Sequence record: NZ_CP028351.1
Reading direction: 5' to 3' (one strand)
Origin: a plasmid
DNA length: 64,000 nucleotides
The notes below the pieces were generated by a model. The model worked only from the letters and a program-made list of their open reading frames with translations. It was not told the origin of the DNA and searched no databases. The position numbers and the translations under genes are program-made. Below, piece by piece: positions 30-9,033 of this stretch (positions are counted from its first letter, which is position 1; each line of letters opens with the position of its first letter).

Positions 30-1067
30 TCAGCCGGGAATATCGGGTTCCGCATATTGTTCCATGAACTCCACCATAGCGCCTTTATGCGCATCCACAT
101 GACGGATATAACGCATTAGTGTCTCCGGTTTTTTCCAGGTGCCTTCCTGCATGATGCGGGCGACAGGATAGCCTTTATCTGCCATATCCTGAGCTGCGCC
201 CACCCTGGCACTGTGGCCACTCCAGCCGGTATAGCGATTCTTGTTAGCCTTTATTGCACTGCCTTTTCCAGCCGTTCGCCAGGCTCGATTAAAAATCTGT
301 TCCAGTGCCCGGGTACTCATCGGTTTTTCTGTAATCAGCACCCGGCCTGAGCGGTGTACTGCATTGAACAGCCAGGCATCAGGCTGACTGGAAAGGCCGG
401 ACGCCTCGATCCACTCTTCAAGTCGCCGGGTTGAATGAGCGCTGAGCGCCTTGATCAATCCGCCAGTCTGCACAAGGGTTTTTGTCCACGCCACATCCAG
501 AATGATACGACCATCACCGGCACGCATCACATCACGCACCCGCAACCGTGACAGTTCACTGATACGCAGTAGCGTTGCATAGGCGACATGCAAAAAAGCC
601 AGATCACGAAGCACCTGGAGATTGTCAGAACCTGACCACTGTTTATCCAGCACCATCAGGTCTGTCAGCCTGAAGGGCACGGCCTGGCCTGCACGCTCGC
701 CATTCACAACGGCAACCCGGTTAATCTTCTTCATGGTACGGAAAACCAGCGGAGAACCATTCGGCACAGGCAAGCCGGCGTTACGGTGTAACATCGAAAT
801 CAACGCTGCATGGGACGTGACGGTCGAAGAAGCCCGTCCGCTTTCAGCCAGAAAAGAGAGATAGTCACGCAAATCCTCTGCGCTCATCGGCAGAAAAGTA
901 CGCTGGTTATCTTCTGACCACTGATTGCAGATTCGCATGACGCTAAGCAGCTGTCGCCAGGTATTGGGGGAAAAGGCCTCTTTGTCCTGGACGAACTGTC
1001 TGAGCCGTTCGGTGATATCACTGTTCCGGTTCACCGTCAGACGGGTTAACGGCACTATCTCACTCAT
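30..1067 (-). CDS. Cre-like tyrosine site-specific recombinase
   Basis: The 345-aa ORF is colinear with P1 Cre. Shared blocks include LLSVxR, AFLxxAYxTLLRIxExxRxRVxD, WSGHSARVGAAxDMA and the LMRYIR Tyr box. The start codon is the complement of 1065-1067. Confidence 0.9.
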   Translation of the reverse strand: MSEIVPLTRLTVNRNSDITERLRQFVQDKEAFSPNTWRQLLSVMRICNQWSEDNQRTFLPMSAEDLRDYLSFLAESGRASSTVTSHAALISMLHRNAGLPVPNGSPLVFRTMKKINRVAVVNGERAGQAVPFRLTDLMVLDKQWSGSDNLQVLRDLAFLHVAYATLLRISELSRLRVRDVMRAGDGRIILDVAWTKTLVQTGGLIKALSAHSTRRLEEWIEASGLSSQPDAWLFNAVHRSGRVLITEKPMSTRALEQIFNRAWRTAGKGSAIKANKNRYTGWSGHSARVGAAQDMADKGYPVARIMQEGTWKKPETLMRYIRHVDAHKGAMVEFMEQYAEPDIPG

Positions 1068-1102
1068 CTTTGCTCGCTTATTAATCAGAAAACGCGATGA
1101 TC

Positions 1103-1160
1103 GCGCTACGTGAATTCTGAGAATTCAGCAGGGGGATTACCGGTCAGAATTTACGTAGCG
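1103..1160. repeat. nested inverted repeats between the recombinase start and the lox site
   Basis: Two 16-bp arms, GCGCTACGTGAATTCTG and CAGAATTTACGTAGCG, form an inverted repeat with one mismatch and a spacer of about 25 bp. An inner perfect palindrome GAATTCTGAGAATTC sits inside it. The element is operator-like. Confidence 0.5.
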
Positions 1161-1221
1161 TTGCCATTTTGCAGCCTTACCTTTGCTGCCCATTATCATA
1201 ACCCGTCAATTTTCCTGTGTC

Positions 1222-1255
1222 ATGACTTCGTATAAGAACAATTATACGAAGTTAT
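1222..1255. other. lox-like recombination site: ATGACTTCGTATA - AGAACAAT - TATACGAAGTTAT
   Basis: The 13-bp inverted arms match P1 loxP at 25 of 26 positions. The 8-bp spacer differs. The site lies about 155 bp upstream of the cre-like start, as loxP lies relative to cre in P1. Confidence 0.8.
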
Positions 1256-1956
1256 AATTCCATAGCCTTTCTGCAAGATTTTTGCCAACCGGTCTGGCGC
1301 AGAATCGTGTGGAGTAGGGTGTCATCCTGACCACGCATTTACCGGTTGCGTTAGCATAAGGACACAGGCTGTGCAGAGCATGAGATTTGAACCAGACGTC
1401 TGAATAACCCTTCTCAACTTCAGCTTAATAAAATTACTCACTTAAATAATGGCAATAGTGAATTGAATTGATAAGACGATTTTCAATGGCTCATAAATAA
1501 TCGAACACGAAGCTCGCCTGAAAATAAGCCAGAAAAGATCCCAAATGATATTCACGTTCCGGACGACCATGACCATTATTTATCGTTAGCCTGTAAGTTG
1601 AGCAGATTTTCCCACCATTATCTTTATTGTCACGAACTGATAACCCCACATTCCTACTACCAAAAAGTGTTCTGAAAGCATTTGTCAGAATAAAAAACTA
1701 AATATCAATATTTTAAAGATTTAAATATCACCCGGCAATGACAAGCCGCTATCCTGCACTCCTGAATATGGGAAGCAGTGACACCCTTTTATCCGCTTTT
1801 AATCAAAATAAGACGGACAGTTAATGAACTGACCGAAGCAGATTAATAATGAATAAGATGATATTGGGGTCATTGAGAACTAATCAATTATGCGCATTTT
1901 TATGCCGGCGTCTGAAGTAACACCGGCATTCATCAGGGTAAAAAGAGGATTTTTTC

Positions 1957-2488: not shown

Positions 2489-2695
2489 ATGGTCAAAAAA
2501 TATTTTTATTGCCTCAGCCAGAAATACCTGAAAAAGCCAAAGCCATATTATGAATTAGCTTTGCGAATATTGTAATAACCACGCTATTTACTTCGTTCTG
2601 ACCAACTGCCTATTATCGCTTTCATCGTAAATAAATGTGACGCGCTCAATATCAGCCAATCTGCTTTGACGCCTGTCTCTTTTTCCGGAAGCGCT

Positions 2696-3907
2696 ATGAA
2701 ACTCATCTCAGATCCTCCCGAGACTTGCCTGGCAGCCGTCATTACCCGACGCGATCAGGCTATTCAGGCTGCCCATTCGCTGGCTGAACAGGCGAAACCT
2801 GGTGCCATTGAACGCGATCAGCAACGACTTTACCCCCGCGACCTTCTCGACAGGTTTACCCGGCTCGGACTGGGCAGCATCAGTGTTCCACGCCACTTTG
2901 GTGGTGGGGGACTGGATTTTCAGACAGTGGCGGAGGTATTCCGCATCATCTCAGCCAGCGATCCCTCTCTGGGCCAGATTCCGCAAAATCACTTTGGTCT
3001 GATTCAGTTCATTCTTGGCGAAGGCAACCCGCAACAACAGACAACATTGCTGCAGGCGGTGGTCAGTGGCAAACGGCTGGGCAATGGGGGCCCCGAGAAG
3101 AACACCCGCCATACGCGGGACATTCAGGCACGGCTGGTCAGTGACGGTCCGGAACACCGTCTGACCGGAGAGAAATTCTATTCTACCGGTGCATTGTTCG
3201 CAGACATTCTGGTGACCACCGCTCTGCAGGAGAGTGACCAGCCTGCAATGGCTTTTATCCCGCTGCCTGCCAACGGCGCAGAGATTATTGATGACTGGTC
3301 AGGCATGGGTCAGCGTACCACGGCCAGCGGCACAGTAAGGCTTGATCGGGTTGCCGTAGATCCTGCATTGCTTATCCCCTTGCCGCCAGAAGAAAAACCG
3401 ACCCTGCGCGGGGCTGTCTCGCAACTGATTCAGGCGGCGATCGATGCTGGTATCGCTCAGGGCGCGCTGGACGATGCGCTGGAGTTTGTCCGCAGCAGCT
3501 CACGCCCCTGGGTGGACGCAGGCGTGGAGCGCAACGCTGACGATCCCTACATCCTTGCTGACATCGGTCGTATCAGTACTGAACTGAGCGCCGCAAATGC
3601 CCTACTGCGCCGGGCCGCAAACGTGCTTGATTCACTCGATCAGCAGGCACTGACAGCAGAAAACAGCGCAGCCGCCTCTATTGCCGTAGCGGAAGCCAAA
3701 GTGCTGACCACTGACATCGCGCTGCGTGCCAGTGAAAAACTGTTGGAGTGGGGCGGCAGTCGCGCCACGCTCCTGCAGCATGGGCTGGATCGCCACTGGC
3801 GCAATGCGCGCACTCACACGCTGCACGACCCGGTGCGGTGGAAAACACACGCTATCGGCAATTACTACCTCAATGCGATCTACCCCGCGCGTCATGCATG
3901 GATTTAA
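2696..3907 (+). CDS. SfnB/DszC-family acyl-CoA dehydrogenase-like sulfur-acquisition oxidoreductase (paralog 1)
   Basis: C-terminal signature LDRHWRNARTHTLHDPVRWK. It is a paralog of the next ORF. The track start at 2666 is TTG; ATG 2696 is preferred because it has a GGAAG RBS. Confidence 0.85.
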   Translation: MKLISDPPETCLAAVITRRDQAIQAAHSLAEQAKPGAIERDQQRLYPRDLLDRFTRLGLGSISVPRHFGGGGLDFQTVAEVFRIISASDPSLGQIPQNHFGLIQFILGEGNPQQQTTLLQAVVSGKRLGNGGPEKNTRHTRDIQARLVSDGPEHRLTGEKFYSTGALFADILVTTALQESDQPAMAFIPLPANGAEIIDDWSGMGQRTTASGTVRLDRVAVDPALLIPLPPEEKPTLRGAVSQLIQAAIDAGIAQGALDDALEFVRSSSRPWVDAGVERNADDPYILADIGRISTELSAANALLRRAANVLDSLDQQALTAENSAAASIAVAEAKVLTTDIALRASEKLLEWGGSRATLLQHGLDRHWRNARTHTLHDPVRWKTHAIGNYYLNAIYPARHAWI

Positions 3908-3916
3908 GGAGAAAGA

Positions 3917-5107
3917 ATGAGTCAGGTTCAGCCCAAACAGCACGCTTCCCCTATTCGCAGCGAGCAGCATGCGCTGGAAGTGGCTGCGCAACTGGCGCAG
4001 CAGTTCCGTGAGGGGGCCGCAGCGCGAGATCGTGAACGTGAACTGCCGCATTCCCCTCTGCAGACCCTGTTTCAATCAGGATTAGGGGGGATTACCGTGC
4101 CGCAGGCGTACGGAGGCATTGCCGTATCAACCGCCACACTCGTCTCTGTGATCACGCTAATTAGCGAGGCTGATGCAGCGATTGGTCAGGTTCCGCAAAA
4201 TCACTACTACGCGCTGGAAGTGCTGCGCGTTAACGGCAGTGAATCACAAAAACAACGGTTGTATCGGGAAGTCCTGACAGGCGTGCATCTGGGCAATGCG
4301 CTGGCAGAGTTCTCCTCCCGTGCCGCACATCAGCGGACCACGCAGATTCGGTGCAATATTCTCAACGGCAGCAAGTTCTACGCTACCGGTGCGCTGTTTG
4401 CTGACCGCATTCCCACGGCTGCGCGCGATGAAGAGGATAAAGAGCAACTGGTATTTGTGCCACGTCATCAGGCGGGTGTGACCGTTATTGATGACTGGAG
4501 CGGGTTTGGTCAGCGCACCACAGGCAGCGGCAGCGTCCTCTTCGAAAACGTCACGGTGGATGCTGCAGATGTGGTGCCGTTTCAGACAGCATTTGAGCGG
4601 CCGACGACCGTCGGTCCTTTTGCGCAGATTATGCACGCCGCTATCGATCAGGGAATTGCACGCGCCGCATTTAACGACATGCTCGATTTTCTGCGCCAGC
4701 GTGCCCGACCCTGGCCCGACAGCGGGGTAACGCGTGCCACTGATGACCCCTTAACGCTCGATCGCACCGGACGTCTGGCGGCGCGACTGAGCGCCGGTGA
4801 CGCCCTGTTAGCCGAGGCAGGGGCAGCCATCGACGCCGCGCAACAGCAGTCTGACGCCGCGACGGTGGCGCTGGCCTCGGTGGAGGTGGCCAGAGCGCGT
4901 GCCTGGACCACAGAAGTCTCACTGGAAGCGGCTAATTTGCTGTTTGAACTGGGCGGTTCACGCGCCAGCCTGCGTGAATATAACCTTGATCGCCACTGGC
5001 GTAACGCGCGCACCCATACCCTGCACGATCCGGTACGCTGGAAATATCCCGCGATAGGGAATTACCTGCTCAATGGCGTGCTGCCACCGCGCCGGGGCAC
5101 GCTATGA
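3917..5107 (+). CDS. SfnB/DszC-family acyl-CoA dehydrogenase-like oxidoreductase (paralog 2)
   Basis: Same family signature (LDRHWRNARTHTLHDPVRWKYPAIGNY). Strong RBS AAGGAGAAAGA. Confidence 0.85.
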   Translation: MSQVQPKQHASPIRSEQHALEVAAQLAQQFREGAAARDRERELPHSPLQTLFQSGLGGITVPQAYGGIAVSTATLVSVITLISEADAAIGQVPQNHYYALEVLRVNGSESQKQRLYREVLTGVHLGNALAEFSSRAAHQRTTQIRCNILNGSKFYATGALFADRIPTAARDEEDKEQLVFVPRHQAGVTVIDDWSGFGQRTTGSGSVLFENVTVDAADVVPFQTAFERPTTVGPFAQIMHAAIDQGIARAAFNDMLDFLRQRARPWPDSGVTRATDDPLTLDRTGRLAARLSAGDALLAEAGAAIDAAQQQSDAATVALASVEVARARAWTTEVSLEAANLLFELGGSRASLREYNLDRHWRNARTHTLHDPVRWKYPAIGNYLLNGVLPPRRGTL

Positions 5108-6453
5108 CTCAGAAACAGGTTCTGCTCAACGCGTTTAACATGAATTGTGTCGGCCATATTCATCACGGCATGTGGACGCACCCGGAAGACCGTTCAACCG
5201 AGTTCAATACGCTGGCCTACTGGACTGATCTGGCCCGCCTGCTGGAACGCGGACTGTTCGATGGACTCTTTATTGCGGATATTCTGGGCGTCTATGACGT
5301 TTATCAGCAGGGTATTACGCTAACGGCACGCGAGTCGATTCAGTTGCCGGTCAACGATCCGCTGATGCTGGTTTCGGCTATGGCGGGCGTCACGCAGCAT
5401 CTTGGCTTCGCCGTGACCGCGAATCTCAGTTATGAAGCACCTTTTCCTTTTGCCCGCCGTCTTTCCACACTCGACCATCTGACTCAGGGACGGATAGGCT
5501 GGAACATCGTCACCGGCTACCTGGACAGCGCCGCCCGTGCCATGGGAAACAAACAGCTGCTGGCACACGATGAGCGCTATGCACAGGCGGATGAGTTTCT
5601 CGATGTCAGTTATCAGCTATGGGAAGGAAGCTGGCAGGATGATGCGCTGGTTGTCGATCGCCCGAATCGTCTTTACGCAGACGCCACGAAAATTCATCCG
5701 GTCAGGCATCAGGGTGAATTTTATCAGGTTGAAGGCTATCACCTCAGCAGCCCGTCACCCCAGCGTACGCCGTTACTGTTTCAGGCCGGCACCTCTGCAC
5801 GCGGGATTCAGTTTGCTGCGCGTCATGCCGAATGCACTTTTGTTAACGCAGCGACACCCGCAGCGATGCACCAGCAGACTCAGCGGCTGCGACAGGCCGC
5901 AGTTGAAGCAGGTCGACGTGCAGATGATTTGCGCATCTTCATGGGTGTCGGCGTCATCGTCGCCCCGACAGAGCGTGAAGCACAGGAGAAACACCGCAGT
6001 TATCTTGAATATGCCAGCCCGGAAGCAGGCATTGCCCATTTCTCCAGTTCCATTGGTCTCGATCTGGCCGCCTTTGAGCTCGACGAGCCCATTATCAGCG
6101 GGGAGACCCGGGCTATTGAATCGGTCAGTAAAGCCTACAGCGGCTGGACTCGTCGCCGTCTGCTGGAGCAGCATGCGATGGGCAGTCGCTATCCACTCAT
6201 AATTGGTAATCCCGCGCAGGTCGCGGACGCGCTGCTGCACTGGATGGATGAAGGCGACATTGACGGCTTTAATCTGACCCGCATTCTGAACCCGCAGAGC
6301 TACCGCGACTTTATCGATTTAGTTGTACCTGAACTCCAGCAGCGCGGGCGCTATAAAACGGCTTATCAGCCCGGTTCACTACGCCACAAAATTTTCCAGC
6401 AGGATCGCCTGCCCGAACGTCACCCGGCGGCTCGCTGGCGTCATCCCGCCTGA
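5104..6453 (+). CDS. LLM-class FMNH2-dependent monooxygenase (NtaA/SnaA/DszA/SoxA family)
   Basis: N-terminus LNAFNMNCVGHIxxGMWTHPEDRSxEFNTLAYWTDLARLLERGxFDGLFIAD is the hallmark of this family. The start overlaps the upstream stop (ATGA), suggesting translational coupling. Confidence 0.85.
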   Translation: MTQKQVLLNAFNMNCVGHIHHGMWTHPEDRSTEFNTLAYWTDLARLLERGLFDGLFIADILGVYDVYQQGITLTARESIQLPVNDPLMLVSAMAGVTQHLGFAVTANLSYEAPFPFARRLSTLDHLTQGRIGWNIVTGYLDSAARAMGNKQLLAHDERYAQADEFLDVSYQLWEGSWQDDALVVDRPNRLYADATKIHPVRHQGEFYQVEGYHLSSPSPQRTPLLFQAGTSARGIQFAARHAECTFVNAATPAAMHQQTQRLRQAAVEAGRRADDLRIFMGVGVIVAPTEREAQEKHRSYLEYASPEAGIAHFSSSIGLDLAAFELDEPIISGETRAIESVSKAYSGWTRRRLLEQHAMGSRYPLIIGNPAQVADALLHWMDEGDIDGFNLTRILNPQSYRDFIDLVVPELQQRGRYKTAYQPGSLRHKIFQQDRLPERHPAARWRHPA

Positions 6454-6486
6454 CCTCATTGATCTATTTAACCTCAAGGAATCACC

Positions 6487-7296
6487 ATGACACGCTCAAA
6501 AACACTACGCGCCGCACTGGGCGGCTTGCTGCTGACCCTCAGTGCCGCGGCGACCGCAGCGAACTATTCCGGCCCGCTCAAAGTGGGCACCACCGCCGCG
6601 TTTGCCCCGCCGCTGGAGACCGCCGTCGCTGAAGCAAAGAAGCAGGGACTGGATGTTGAACTTGTCGAATTTACCGACTGGACTGCCCCGAATGTCAGCG
6701 TGGAAAATGGCGATATCGACGTCAATCTGTTCCAGCACAAGCCGTTTCTGGAGAATGCTAATCAGTCCGGCGGCTTCCACCTGGTCGCTTATGCGCCAGC
6801 CATCATCAATAACATTGGTCTTTATTCCAAAAAACACAGCGCGATTGATCAGGTTCCCGAAGGCGGCACCGTTGCTATCGCCAACGATCCGATTAATGGC
6901 GCACGCGGATTATTGCTGCTGCAGAAGGCGGGGCTGATTACGCTCAAACCGGGTGTGGGACTGAAAGCAACCGTTGATGACATCGTCAGTAACCCTAAAA
7001 AGCTGAAAATTATCGAAGTAGAAGCGGTACAGCTCTCGCGCTCGCTTGAAGAAGTCGACCTGGCGCAGGGTTATCCACACTATCTGCGTCTGGCAAAAAC
7101 GATTGATCCCAATAAGGCACTGCTGTTCGACGGGCTGGAGCACCCGGAATATGTCATTCAGTTCGTAATCCGTCAGGGTCATCAGGACGATCCGCGACTG
7201 GCGAAGTTTGTTGATATCTATCAGCACTCTCCGGTAGTCCGCGCCAGCCTCGACAATTTCTATGGCAAACTCTATCAGCCAGGCTGGAGCCAGTAA
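6487..7296 (+). CDS. MetQ/NlpA-family ABC substrate-binding lipoprotein
   Basis: Signal peptide; the NLFQHKPFLEN and GGTVAIANDPxNGARGLLLLQKAGLI blocks are typical of the MetQ family. RBS AAGGAA. Confidence 0.85.
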   Translation: MTRSKTLRAALGGLLLTLSAAATAANYSGPLKVGTTAAFAPPLETAVAEAKKQGLDVELVEFTDWTAPNVSVENGDIDVNLFQHKPFLENANQSGGFHLVAYAPAIINNIGLYSKKHSAIDQVPEGGTVAIANDPINGARGLLLLQKAGLITLKPGVGLKATVDDIVSNPKKLKIIEVEAVQLSRSLEEVDLAQGYPHYLRLAKTIDPNKALLFDGLEHPEYVIQFVIRQGHQDDPRLAKFVDIYQHSPVVRASLDNFYGKLYQPGWSQ

Positions 7297-7298
7297 TC

Positions 7299-8399
7299 AT
7301 GGTCAGCCTGAGCATCCCTGAGACGTCGGCATTGTCCGATGCCGCTACGCGCCATACCAGCGGTGCCTCACACGTCATCATTGAAGCATTAAGTAAACGC
7401 TATCCCGGCCAGTCTGTGGATGCCCTGCGCAATATTAATCTCGGGATCCATCGCGGAGAAATATTCGGCATCATTGGCCGCAGCGGCGCGGGAAAATCTA
7501 CGCTCATCCGCTGCCTTAATCGTCTGGAAGAACCGACTGCCGGACGCATCGTGATCGATGGCACCGATATCAGCGCGTTTAACGCGCGGCAGCTGGTCGA
7601 ATGGCGGCGCAGCACCGGCATGATTTTCCAGCACTTCAATCTGCTGTCGGCCAAAACCGTACGGCAGAATATTGAGCTACCGCTAAAAGTGGCAGGCGTG
7701 CCTGCTGCCGTGCGGGCGCGCAAAGTGGATGAGCTGCTGGCGCTGGTCGGGCTGGAGGCACGGCAACACGCCTGGCCCGCACAGCTTTCCGGTGGACAGA
7801 AACAGCGCGTCGGTATTGCGCGTGCGCTGGTCCACGATCCGGAACTACTGCTGTGCGATGAAGCGACATCAGCACTCGACCCCGAAACGACACGCTCAAT
7901 TCTGGCGCTGCTTAAAAAGATCAATCAGCAACACCATATTACCATTGTGCTGATCACCCATGAGATGGACGTCGTTCATGACCTCTGCCACAACGTTGCG
8001 GTAATCGATCAGGGTGAAATCATTGAGCGCGGCCCGGTCTGGCAGGTTTATAGCGATCCGCAGCAGGAGACAACGCGCCAGCTGCTGAACCCCAATCACC
8101 AGGCTCTGCCAGAGTCGGTCGGCACACGCCTGACTGCCCACCGGCAACATCATCAATCCCGTCTGTTGGTGCGGTTACGCTACACCGGGCAGGGTGCACA
8201 ACCCGATATCGGTGCGCTGAGTGCAGAGATCGCGGGCGAAATCACCCTGATTTACAGCGCTATCGAGTGGGTTGACAGCAAACCCACCGGCCAGTTGTTG
8301 CTCCTGCTGGATGCCCGACACGAGGCGCAATCCGTGACAACTCAACTGGCGCACATCGCCGATCGACTGGAGGTATTAGGTTATGTCACCGGCTATTGA
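7299..8399 (+). CDS. MetN-like ABC transporter ATP-binding protein with C-terminal NIL domain
   Basis: Walker A GRSGAGKST, signature LSGGQKQR and Walker B LLLCDEATSALD. The 366-aa length includes a C-terminal regulatory domain. Confidence 0.9.
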   Translation: MVSLSIPETSALSDAATRHTSGASHVIIEALSKRYPGQSVDALRNINLGIHRGEIFGIIGRSGAGKSTLIRCLNRLEEPTAGRIVIDGTDISAFNARQLVEWRRSTGMIFQHFNLLSAKTVRQNIELPLKVAGVPAAVRARKVDELLALVGLEARQHAWPAQLSGGQKQRVGIARALVHDPELLLCDEATSALDPETTRSILALLKKINQQHHITIVLITHEMDVVHDLCHNVAVIDQGEIIERGPVWQVYSDPQQETTRQLLNPNHQALPESVGTRLTAHRQHHQSRLLVRLRYTGQGAQPDIGALSAEIAGEITLIYSAIEWVDSKPTGQLLLLLDARHEAQSVTTQLAHIADRLEVLGYVTGY

Positions 8400-9033
8400 A
8401 CGTTTATGGGTCGCCTTTCTGGATACGCTGCTGATGGTAGGCGTCTCCTCTGCGCTCGCGCTTGCGCTGGGCTTACCAATGGCGGTGATTCTGGTGGTCA
8501 GCGGACGCGGCGATCTTTTTCCCAGCCCACTACTTAATCGGGTGCTGGGCTGGGTGGTTAACCTCTTTCGCTCCATCCCATTTCTGATCCTGATGGTGGC
8601 GTTAATTCCCTTTACCCGCTGGATTGTGGGAACCACCTATGGCGTTTGGGCAGCCGTCGTACCGCTTACCCTGGCGGCCACCCCGTTTTTTGCCCGTATT
8701 GCGGAGGTCAGCCTGCGTGAAGTTGATAAAGGACTGACCGAAGCGGCGCAGGCCATGGGATTTCATCGCTGGCATATTATCTGGCATGTGCTGCTGCCGG
8801 AAGCGCGGCCAGGCATCGTCAGCGGTTTTACCATCACGCTGGTGACGATGATTAACGCGTCAGCGATGGCCGGCGCCATCGGTGCAGGAGGATTAGGGGA
8901 TCTGGCGTATCGTTATGGTTATCAGCGGTTTGATATGCAGGTAATGGTGACAGTTATTGTGGTGCTGGTCGCGCTGGTGACGTTGCTTCAGTTGTGCGGT
9001 GACCGGCTGTCGCGACGGCTGAATCACCGCTAA
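8383..9033 (+). CDS. MetI-like ABC transporter permease
   Basis: 216 aa with five predicted TM segments. It overlaps the ATPase gene. Confidence 0.85.
   Translation: MSPAIERLWVAFLDTLLMVGVSSALALALGLPMAVILVVSGRGDLFPSPLLNRVLGWVVNLFRSIPFLILMVALIPFTRWIVGTTYGVWAAVVPLTLAATPFFARIAEVSLREVDKGLTEAAQAMGFHRWHIIWHVLLPEARPGIVSGFTITLVTMINASAMAGAIGAGGLGDLAYRYGYQRFDMQVMVTVIVVLVALVTLLQLCGDRLSRRLNHR

Follow-up and report, generated by a model that had tools for sequence, protein, structure and literature searches.

A Cre-type recombinase gene and its near-loxP site on a large Pantoea plasmid: a probable module for plasmid multimer resolution

Introduction

What does a Cre-type recombinase, paired with a near copy of the loxP site, do for a large Pantoea plasmid? 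The question is raised by the beginning of a 64,000-nucleotide stretch of plasmid DNA (sequence record NZ_CP028351.1), the whole of which is called the window here. A tyrosine recombinase gene at 30..1067 on the minus strand and a predicted lox-like recombination site of 34 bp at 1222..1255 form the module under study. Part of the answer is already known: the gene is labelled Cre in GenBank, and the kind of system is well known. The evidence described below suggests that the module is probably an accessory-free pair of a Cre-type recombinase and its target that serves plasmid multimer resolution.

The recombinase

The gene starts with an ATG at position 1067 and encodes a protein of 345 amino acids. 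An exact-sequence look-up identified the product as GenBank AVV39835.1 / WP_107320475.1, a record named 'recombinase Cre [Pantoea vagans]' that belongs to a 168-kb contig. In a phmmer comparison with the Cre structure PDB 1nzb, residues 10-336 of the 345 were aligned to Cre residues 14-340 with an E-value of 1e-76. The protein had been described as a full-length Cre homologue in a previous reading made from the DNA letters alone (the sequence-only reading), and this description was borne out. Its length lies within the 300-400 amino acids of Cre-type systems, and its homology extends across both Cre domains. The same reading had judged the protein by eye to be moderately similar to P1 Cre, which agrees with the 41-42% identity found here. 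In a global alignment with P1 Cre, 143 of 343 positions were identical, and tblastn gave 42.2-42.5% identity to Cre of P1 and P7. A needle-style alignment with Cre gave 41.0% identity and 57.0% similarity, the corresponding values for members of the same clade being 40-42% and 57-59%.

The catalytic residues of the R-K-H-R-H/W-Y type, which had been proposed as a check, are all present. R168, K196, H285, R288, W311 (at the H/W position) and Y320 correspond in the global alignment to R173, K201, H289, R292, W315 and Y324 of Cre, and all six are likewise kept in 22 of the 22 relatives compared. Pfam recognized only the generic Phage_integrase domain (PF00589), PHROGs matched the recombinase to integrase family phrog_1, and no model specific for the 345-amino-acid protein was found in NCBIfam. 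An identity as XerC or XerD was rejected, as the scores were 28-29 bits against NCBIfam cut-offs of 330-335; the 'XerD' labels in some records are generic. The ratio of nonsynonymous to synonymous substitution rates (dN/dS) is 0.06-0.07 (about 0.065) in comparisons with six relatives, at dS of 0.3-1.5, and the recombinase gene is under strong purifying selection. These features indicate a Cre-type enzyme with an intact active site, which would be expected to catalyse recombination at the site at 1222-1255.

The target site

The site is composed of two inverted 13-bp arms around an asymmetric 8-bp spacer (13-8-13). The gene-proximal (left) arm, ATGACTTCGTATA, occupies 1222-1234, and the distal (right) arm, TATACGAAGTTAT, occupies 1243-1255. 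The spacer at 1235-1242 reads AGAACAAT on the plus strand and ATTGTTCT toward the gene. Agreement with the loxP arm is complete (13/13) in the right arm and extends to 12 of 13 positions in the left arm, where the single change is G for A at position 3. A near-loxP site with 25 of 26 matching arm positions, as announced by the sequence-only reading, is thus indeed located at 1222-1255. The adjacency of gene and site also held, although the distance of 155 bp given for it needs a small correction, with 154 bp measured between the ATG (1067) and the site (1222). A search for the loxP-arm pattern with up to three mismatches gave one match in the 64-kb window and none in 100 dinucleotide shuffles of it.

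The spacer differs from that of loxP (GCATACAT/ATGTATGC, where GCATACAT is the P1 spacer read toward cre), as had also been stated before. By the authors' own count, five of the eight positions differ in the better orientation; the A at position 4' is kept, and the G-to-T change at position 3, which is the most harmful, is absent. When pairs of matched non-loxP spacers were offered to Cre, 84% were efficiently recombined, and only about 16% of five-mismatch spacers were poor Cre substrates (Hoersten et al., 2024; PMC11260471). Read toward the gene, the spacer has A first and T last in every family site that was located. With these ends, the sites effectively consist of 14-bp arms and a 6-bp asymmetric core, which is TTGTTC in the window.

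A search with the 34-mer gave a single site in each record of about 50 Pantoea plasmids, none of them under an annotated gene. The site is intergenic in every related plasmid, which settles an earlier concern that it might lie inside a conserved reading frame. A 41-amino-acid open reading frame at 1110-1235 on the plus strand, which overlaps the site, was rejected as coding, since relatives carry indels and no annotation at that place. Four plasmids of 131-139 kb were listed with two places; in pPant3, which was scanned in full, both correspond to the same palindromic site on opposite strands. The search for a second copy, which had been recommended as a sign of an excisable element, was negative in the 64-kb window and in the complete 131-kb pPant3.

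In eight loci of other Pantoea species (84-96% protein identity) the site lies at an unchanged distance from the ATG, and in all relatives of at least 74% identity this distance is 152-154 bp. Over the Pantoea loci, conservation amounts to 95-98% in the inner nine base pairs of the arms and 89% in the spacer, compared with 44% in the distal flank. The site as a whole is 91% conserved, and the fall to 44% begins exactly at its distal edge. Gene and site are co-conserved and are inherited as a pair. The low dN/dS of the gene, together with the conserved 34-bp site, indicates that both are under selection.

A probable role in plasmid multimer resolution

The sequence-only reading had proposed that the module acts either in replicon dimer resolution or at the edge of an integrative element. 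Dimer resolution is supported by the presence of one site per replicon, beside its own recombinase, on plasmids with ParAB, and by synteny that is conserved on both sides; the integrative edge is contradicted by the lack of a second copy in the window and in the fully scanned pPant3. P1 Cre is the established resolver of dimers of the P1 plasmid prophage. The present module is self-contained, and its host replicon is a large, low-copy Pantoea plasmid of the pPag1 type, about 168 kb in size. Homologous recombination would generate a plasmid dimer in which two sites are present as direct repeats. Four recombinase monomers would bind the four half-sites of the two site copies, and strand exchange within the asymmetric 6-bp core TTGTTC would convert the dimer to monomers. 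These would then be segregated by ParAB, in parallel to the action of Cre/loxP in the P1 plasmid prophage. Accessory sites or proteins would not be expected. Recognition of the half-sites would depend on the key determinant that Cre also uses, the arginine at the Cre-259 position. Because this determinant is shared, P1 Cre and the window's enzyme should act on each other's sites. A pair of one loxP and one Pantoea site, in contrast, should not recombine because of the different spacers.

The sharp fall of conservation just distal to the site could also be taken as the mark of an integration and excision system, in which the site would be an attP-like junction for insertion of the plasmid, or of a segment, at a matching site in another replicon. 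Cre-type enzymes are capable of both integration and excision (Karimova et al., 2016; PMC4957104), and some family members are found on Mb-sized contigs, such as that of Pantoea alhagi (4.24 Mb). However, a single site is present both in the window and in pPant3, synteny is retained on both sides in dozens of plasmids, and excision is the thermodynamically favoured reaction for Cre-type enzymes (Jelicic et al., 2023, Nucleic Acids Res 51:5285; PMC10250229). A function in integration is considered unlikely.

Even less probable is a third explanation, by which the module would be a leftover of a P1-like phage-plasmid, either without present function for the plasmid or selfish only. The flanks of the module carry no phage genes, a search of the viral contig collection gave no close relative, and in the phage collection no relative exceeded 45% identity. 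Moreover, a dN/dS of about 0.065 with saturated dS and a site conserved across species indicate that the module is under selection on plasmids. These observations stand against the fact that the closest characterized relatives (Cre, Dre and the enzyme of a Citrobacter phage-plasmid) are phage-borne and against the match to the PHROGs integrase family phrog_1.

Several points also weigh against multimer resolution, which is nonetheless the preferred role. The published recombinase YR4, which is discussed below, may or may not be the window's protein, and activity on this exact site is predicted from homology and conservation. In pPant3, the module lies about 50 kb from the rep and par genes and not within a stability cluster. 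Its neighbours are feoAB and genes of sulfur metabolism. Since the PLSDB gene tables are incomplete, another resolvase may be present on the plasmid. In addition, some relatives are found on chromosome-sized contigs (P. alhagi, 4.24 Mb) and two, designated L023 and L027, have no recognizable site, so the link between the family and plasmid resolution is not exclusive.

Relation to published systems

The YR4/lox4 system was found when the 1-kb surroundings of Cre-like genes from the NCBI nucleotide collection were scanned (Jelicic et al., 2023; PMC10250229). YR4 shares 42% identity and 58% similarity with Cre, and the half-sites of lox4 are one nucleotide away from loxP. The system was highly active in Escherichia coli even when uninduced, was active in human cells and was cofactor-free. 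YR4 and Cre recombined each other's sites in both directions. It was remarked in the same paper that many DNA-contact residues of Cre are replaced in YR4 and that the half-site is nonetheless the same (PMC10250229).

The window's module agrees with this description, its protein being 41.0% identical and 57.0% similar to Cre and its arms matching loxP at 13/13 and 12/13 positions. Plasmid pPag1 has been in the NCBI nucleotide collection since 2010. YR4 may be the window's protein, but any member of the Pantoea/Erwinia clade with at least 74% identity fits the description equally. A full-text literature search with the spacer and inner arms in both orientations gave no match, and neither the lox4 sequence nor its organism is given in the main text of PMC10250229. 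Other recombinase papers that were searched gave no hit for YR4 or lox4. Among the members of the protein cluster of the window's recombinase, none carries a synthetic-construct or YR4 name. The site string to be set against lox4 is ATGACTTCGTATAAGAACAATTATACGAAGTTAT. It is rather likely that YR4 comes from the window's clade. Systems of this kind are already on record, probably with the window's own among them. The question of cross-reactivity with P1 Cre, which the sequence-only reading had raised, may by analogy be regarded as answered experimentally with YR4/lox4, a system with matching published properties (PMC10250229).

With Cre/loxP of P1, the module shares the fold, the catalytic residues and a 13-8-13 site upstream of the gene. 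Arg259, Thr258, Glu262, Thr87 and Arg282 of Cre are retained in the window's protein, whereas other contact residues are replaced (K43R, M44Q, K86S, Q90S, Q94L, R241A, K244R, G263Q and E266N). The spacer read toward the gene is ATTGTTCT in the window and GCATACAT in P1. The distance from site to gene is 154 bp instead of 416 bp, and there is no ORF1 in between. Also, the module lies on a non-phage metabolic plasmid and carries an inverted repeat in its leader, which P1 does not have. An orthologue proper of P1 Cre/loxP was thus rejected in view of the 41-42% identity, the other spacer, the feoAB and sulfur-metabolism neighbours and the lack of phage genes.

Panto/pox from Pantoea sp. aB (Karimova et al., 2016; PMC4957104), which had been named earlier as a system of this sort, similarly combines a Cre-type enzyme with an adjacent 34-bp site in the same genus. 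The window's module is nevertheless not Panto/pox. The pox site is rox-like (GAAACTTTAAATAATAAGTCTTATTTAAAGTTTC) and is unrelated to the window's site at arm positions 8-10 and in the spacer. The arms of pox, AACTTTAAATA, resemble those of rox, and Panto has proline at the Cre-259 position. Panto is about 46% identical to the window's protein, a value obtained with a Panto sequence damaged by text recognition. It recombines rox and has weak activity on loxP (PMC4957104).

A closer relative is ADW76730.1 from plasmid pRAHAQ02 of Rahnella sp. Y9602, a candidate in Supplementary Figure 1 of the same paper (PMC4957104). It belongs to the same plasmid-borne subfamily, with 64-69% identity; its site lies 170 bp upstream, and its leader carries the same inverted repeat. 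It differs in its arms, CTAAC(A/T)TTATATA, in its spacer, ATGGGACT, and in the proline at the Cre-259 position.

The wider family and its sites

A protein search gave 294 homologues at E <= 1e-20. The 120 matches listed of these share 63% identity or more, their sources being Pantoea, Erwinia, Mixta, Rahnella, Klebsiella and Leclercia; most lie on contigs of 100-200 kb, and a few are on Mb-sized contigs. The plasmid collection contained 49 records with at least 80% identity, 55 with 60-80% and about 980 of the P1/D6 type. On other plasmids, relatives adjoin yefM-yoeB or relBE, which are toxin-antitoxin stability genes, and this placement further supports the role in resolution.

From this family, 23 modules were gathered, and their sites were located. 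All relatives of at least 74% identity have the inner arms CTTCGTATA, as does loxP. Three relatives with 66-67% identity have CTTCATATA (the CAT group), and four relatives with 60-67% identity have TTTATATA, CTTATATA or TTAATATA. A 67% identical homologue on the 4.24-Mb contig of P. alhagi (CP019706.1) has a TAT-type site 164 bp upstream, and its spacer, ATGGGACT, is that found on the Rahnella plasmid pRAHAQ02. Upstream of L023 and L027 (66-68% identity), neither a recognizable 13-8-13 site nor the leader inverted repeat was found, and these two may be orphaned or rearranged modules. In L027, an apparent single degenerate half-site is fused to CATGACA.

Pantoea alfalfae CQ10 contains two modules on two plasmids, p2_CQ10 (NZ_CP082294.1) and p5_CQ10 (NZ_CP082297.1). 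The site on p2_CQ10 is ATGACTTCGTATA-AGAACAAT-TATACGAAGCCAG. The site on p5_CQ10 is CTGGACTTATATA-ATTATGTT-TATATAAGTCCAG, and the p5 recombinase is about 60% identical to that of the window. Judged by their sequences, the two sites look naturally orthogonal. The differing arms and spacers would prevent fusion of the two plasmids, and they are expected if each module serves its own replicon.

Half-site specificity and the origin of the loxP-like arms

In Cre, K43, R259 and G263 discriminate loxP from rox, and Dre and Panto have R, P and K at these positions (Karimova et al., 2016; PMC4957104). The window's protein has R, R and Q. Throughout the family, the residue at the Cre-259 position varies together with position 8 of the half-site. 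Arginine is found with C8, and proline with T or A8, in 21 of the 21 modules that have an identifiable site. The Arg259/C8 combination occurs in P1, the window's clade and the CAT group. The Pro259 combination, with T or A8, occurs in Rahnella, P. alhagi, P. piersonii, P. alfalfae p5, the Citrobacter phage-plasmid and Dre. This covariation agrees with the published role of R259 (PMC4957104).

A neighbour-joining tree of 24 sequences was calculated with 200 bootstraps and an arbitrary root, as a rough distance tree. Support was 92% for the CGT clade and 81% for the Arg259 clade, which combines CGT and CAT. The Pro259 types were monophyletic in 0% of the replicates, and the family without P. alfalfae p5 formed a clade in 94%. 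Dre and the enzyme of the Citrobacter phage-plasmid, both Pro259, were paired in 98.5% and fell outside the plasmid family. The Arg259 clade is thus nested in a paraphyletic grade of plasmid relatives with Pro259. From this topology, it is conceivable, though rather doubtful, that the loxP-type half-site of the Pantoea plasmid clade is convergent and not retained, with Arg259 and C8 regained before G9 followed; such a regain is favoured by parsimony on the neighbour-joining tree. Under convergence, the same 9-11 inner base pairs as in loxP might, equally tentatively, have been reached by a protein 58% different from Cre.

The leader of the recombinase gene

A candidate sigma-70 promoter of the recombinase gene lies at 1195..1223 on the minus strand. 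Its sequence, ATGACA-17 nt-TATGAT, agrees with a promoter at 10 of 12 positions and is the best promoter-like match in 1-2000. The -35 hexamer ATGACA overlaps the outermost 2 nt of the proximal arm of the site, and CATGACA is invariant in nine relatives. The outer arm bases are conserved to 90% in the proximal arm as compared with 68% in the distal arm. Since the hexamer extends across the end of the proximal arm and the outer bases of that arm are the better conserved, it is plausible that occupancy of the site could repress the recombinase gene, in a form of autoregulation.

The same two observations, the best promoter-like match with its -35 hexamer over the proximal arm and the 90% versus 68% conservation of the outer bases, would also suit a palindrome that is mainly a transcriptional operator, bound by the recombinase or by another repressor, and not a crossover site. 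Such an operator would need no asymmetric spacer, yet the spacer is conserved, as is the exact 13-8-13 geometry. Also, the half-sites are nearly identical to loxP, and they covary with a known specificity residue. The idea that the palindrome is an operator instead of a crossover site is very improbable, and the two roles are compatible with each other.

Between the site and the ATG, the leader contains an inverted repeat, CGCTACGT-N3-TTCTG, whose arms occupy 1104-1119 and 1145-1160, 25 nt apart. It is unique in the window. The repeat lies 36 and 77 nt upstream of the ATG and is kept in plasmid relatives down to 60% protein identity. It is thus conserved deeper than the lox arms, being still present where the arms have already changed. 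No such repeat was found in front of P1 cre. The proximal arm of the repeat is followed by an invariant GATC. As RNA, the repeat would fold with -38.5 kcal/mol (z = -2.7), and a search of Rfam gave no match. The central three nucleotides vary among relatives without compensation. Such non-compensatory changes favour a candidate protein-binding site (operator) over an RNA stem, although an RNA hairpin is possible. A terminator-like hairpin at 1091-1107 was dropped, as it is not conserved in relatives.

The replicon and neighbouring genes

Over its first 3 kb, the window is 98% identical to plasmid pPag1 (168 kb) of Pantoea vagans C9-1, and 50 Pantoea plasmids contain this region. On one side the module is flanked by feoAB, on the other by an SgcJ/EcaC gene with sulfur-acquisition genes. 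No phage genes were found among the neighbours of the recombinase. The order feoB, recombinase, site and SgcJ/EcaC is retained in dozens of plasmids. In pPant3, a 131-kb sister plasmid of the same replicon cluster, the module is the only annotated recombinase, a count that is suggestive and not conclusive given the incomplete PLSDB gene tables; RepB and ParA/ParB are encoded about 50 kb away.

The stretch at about 1260-1950, from the lox-like site to the SgcJ/EcaC gene, is unalignable between Pantoea species at megablast sensitivity, while the flanking genes are syntenic. The synteny on both sides indicates that the stretch, rather than being a recombination junction, is intergenic DNA that evolves fast. 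A sulfur-acquisition cluster at about 2670-9000, with two sfnB genes, an LLM oxidoreductase gene and metQ/ABC transporter genes, is found in plasmids of the pPag1 type. It is absent from pPant3, in which monooxygenase and MFS genes directly follow the SgcJ/EcaC gene; this indel is unrelated to the lox-like site.

Significance

The current understanding of Cre-type recombination is unchanged by this module. Its practical value is modest, as an extra or cross-reacting tool, and YR4/lox4 with these properties has already been published. For the biology of the hosts, large plasmids of Pantoea, Erwinia and Rahnella are apparently maintained by Cre-like modules rather than by Xer/cer or serine resolvases. 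P1-like phages that enter such hosts would encounter plasmid sites that are probable substrates for binding and cleavage by their Cre. The graded natural series of residue 259 and half-site position 8 supports the published engineering results. A further look is merited by this series, by the possible convergence on loxP and by the conserved repeat in the leader. If the convergence is true, it would, together with the heterospecific sites on co-resident plasmids and the deep leader repeat, provide a natural series for the evolution of Cre-type specificity and expression control.

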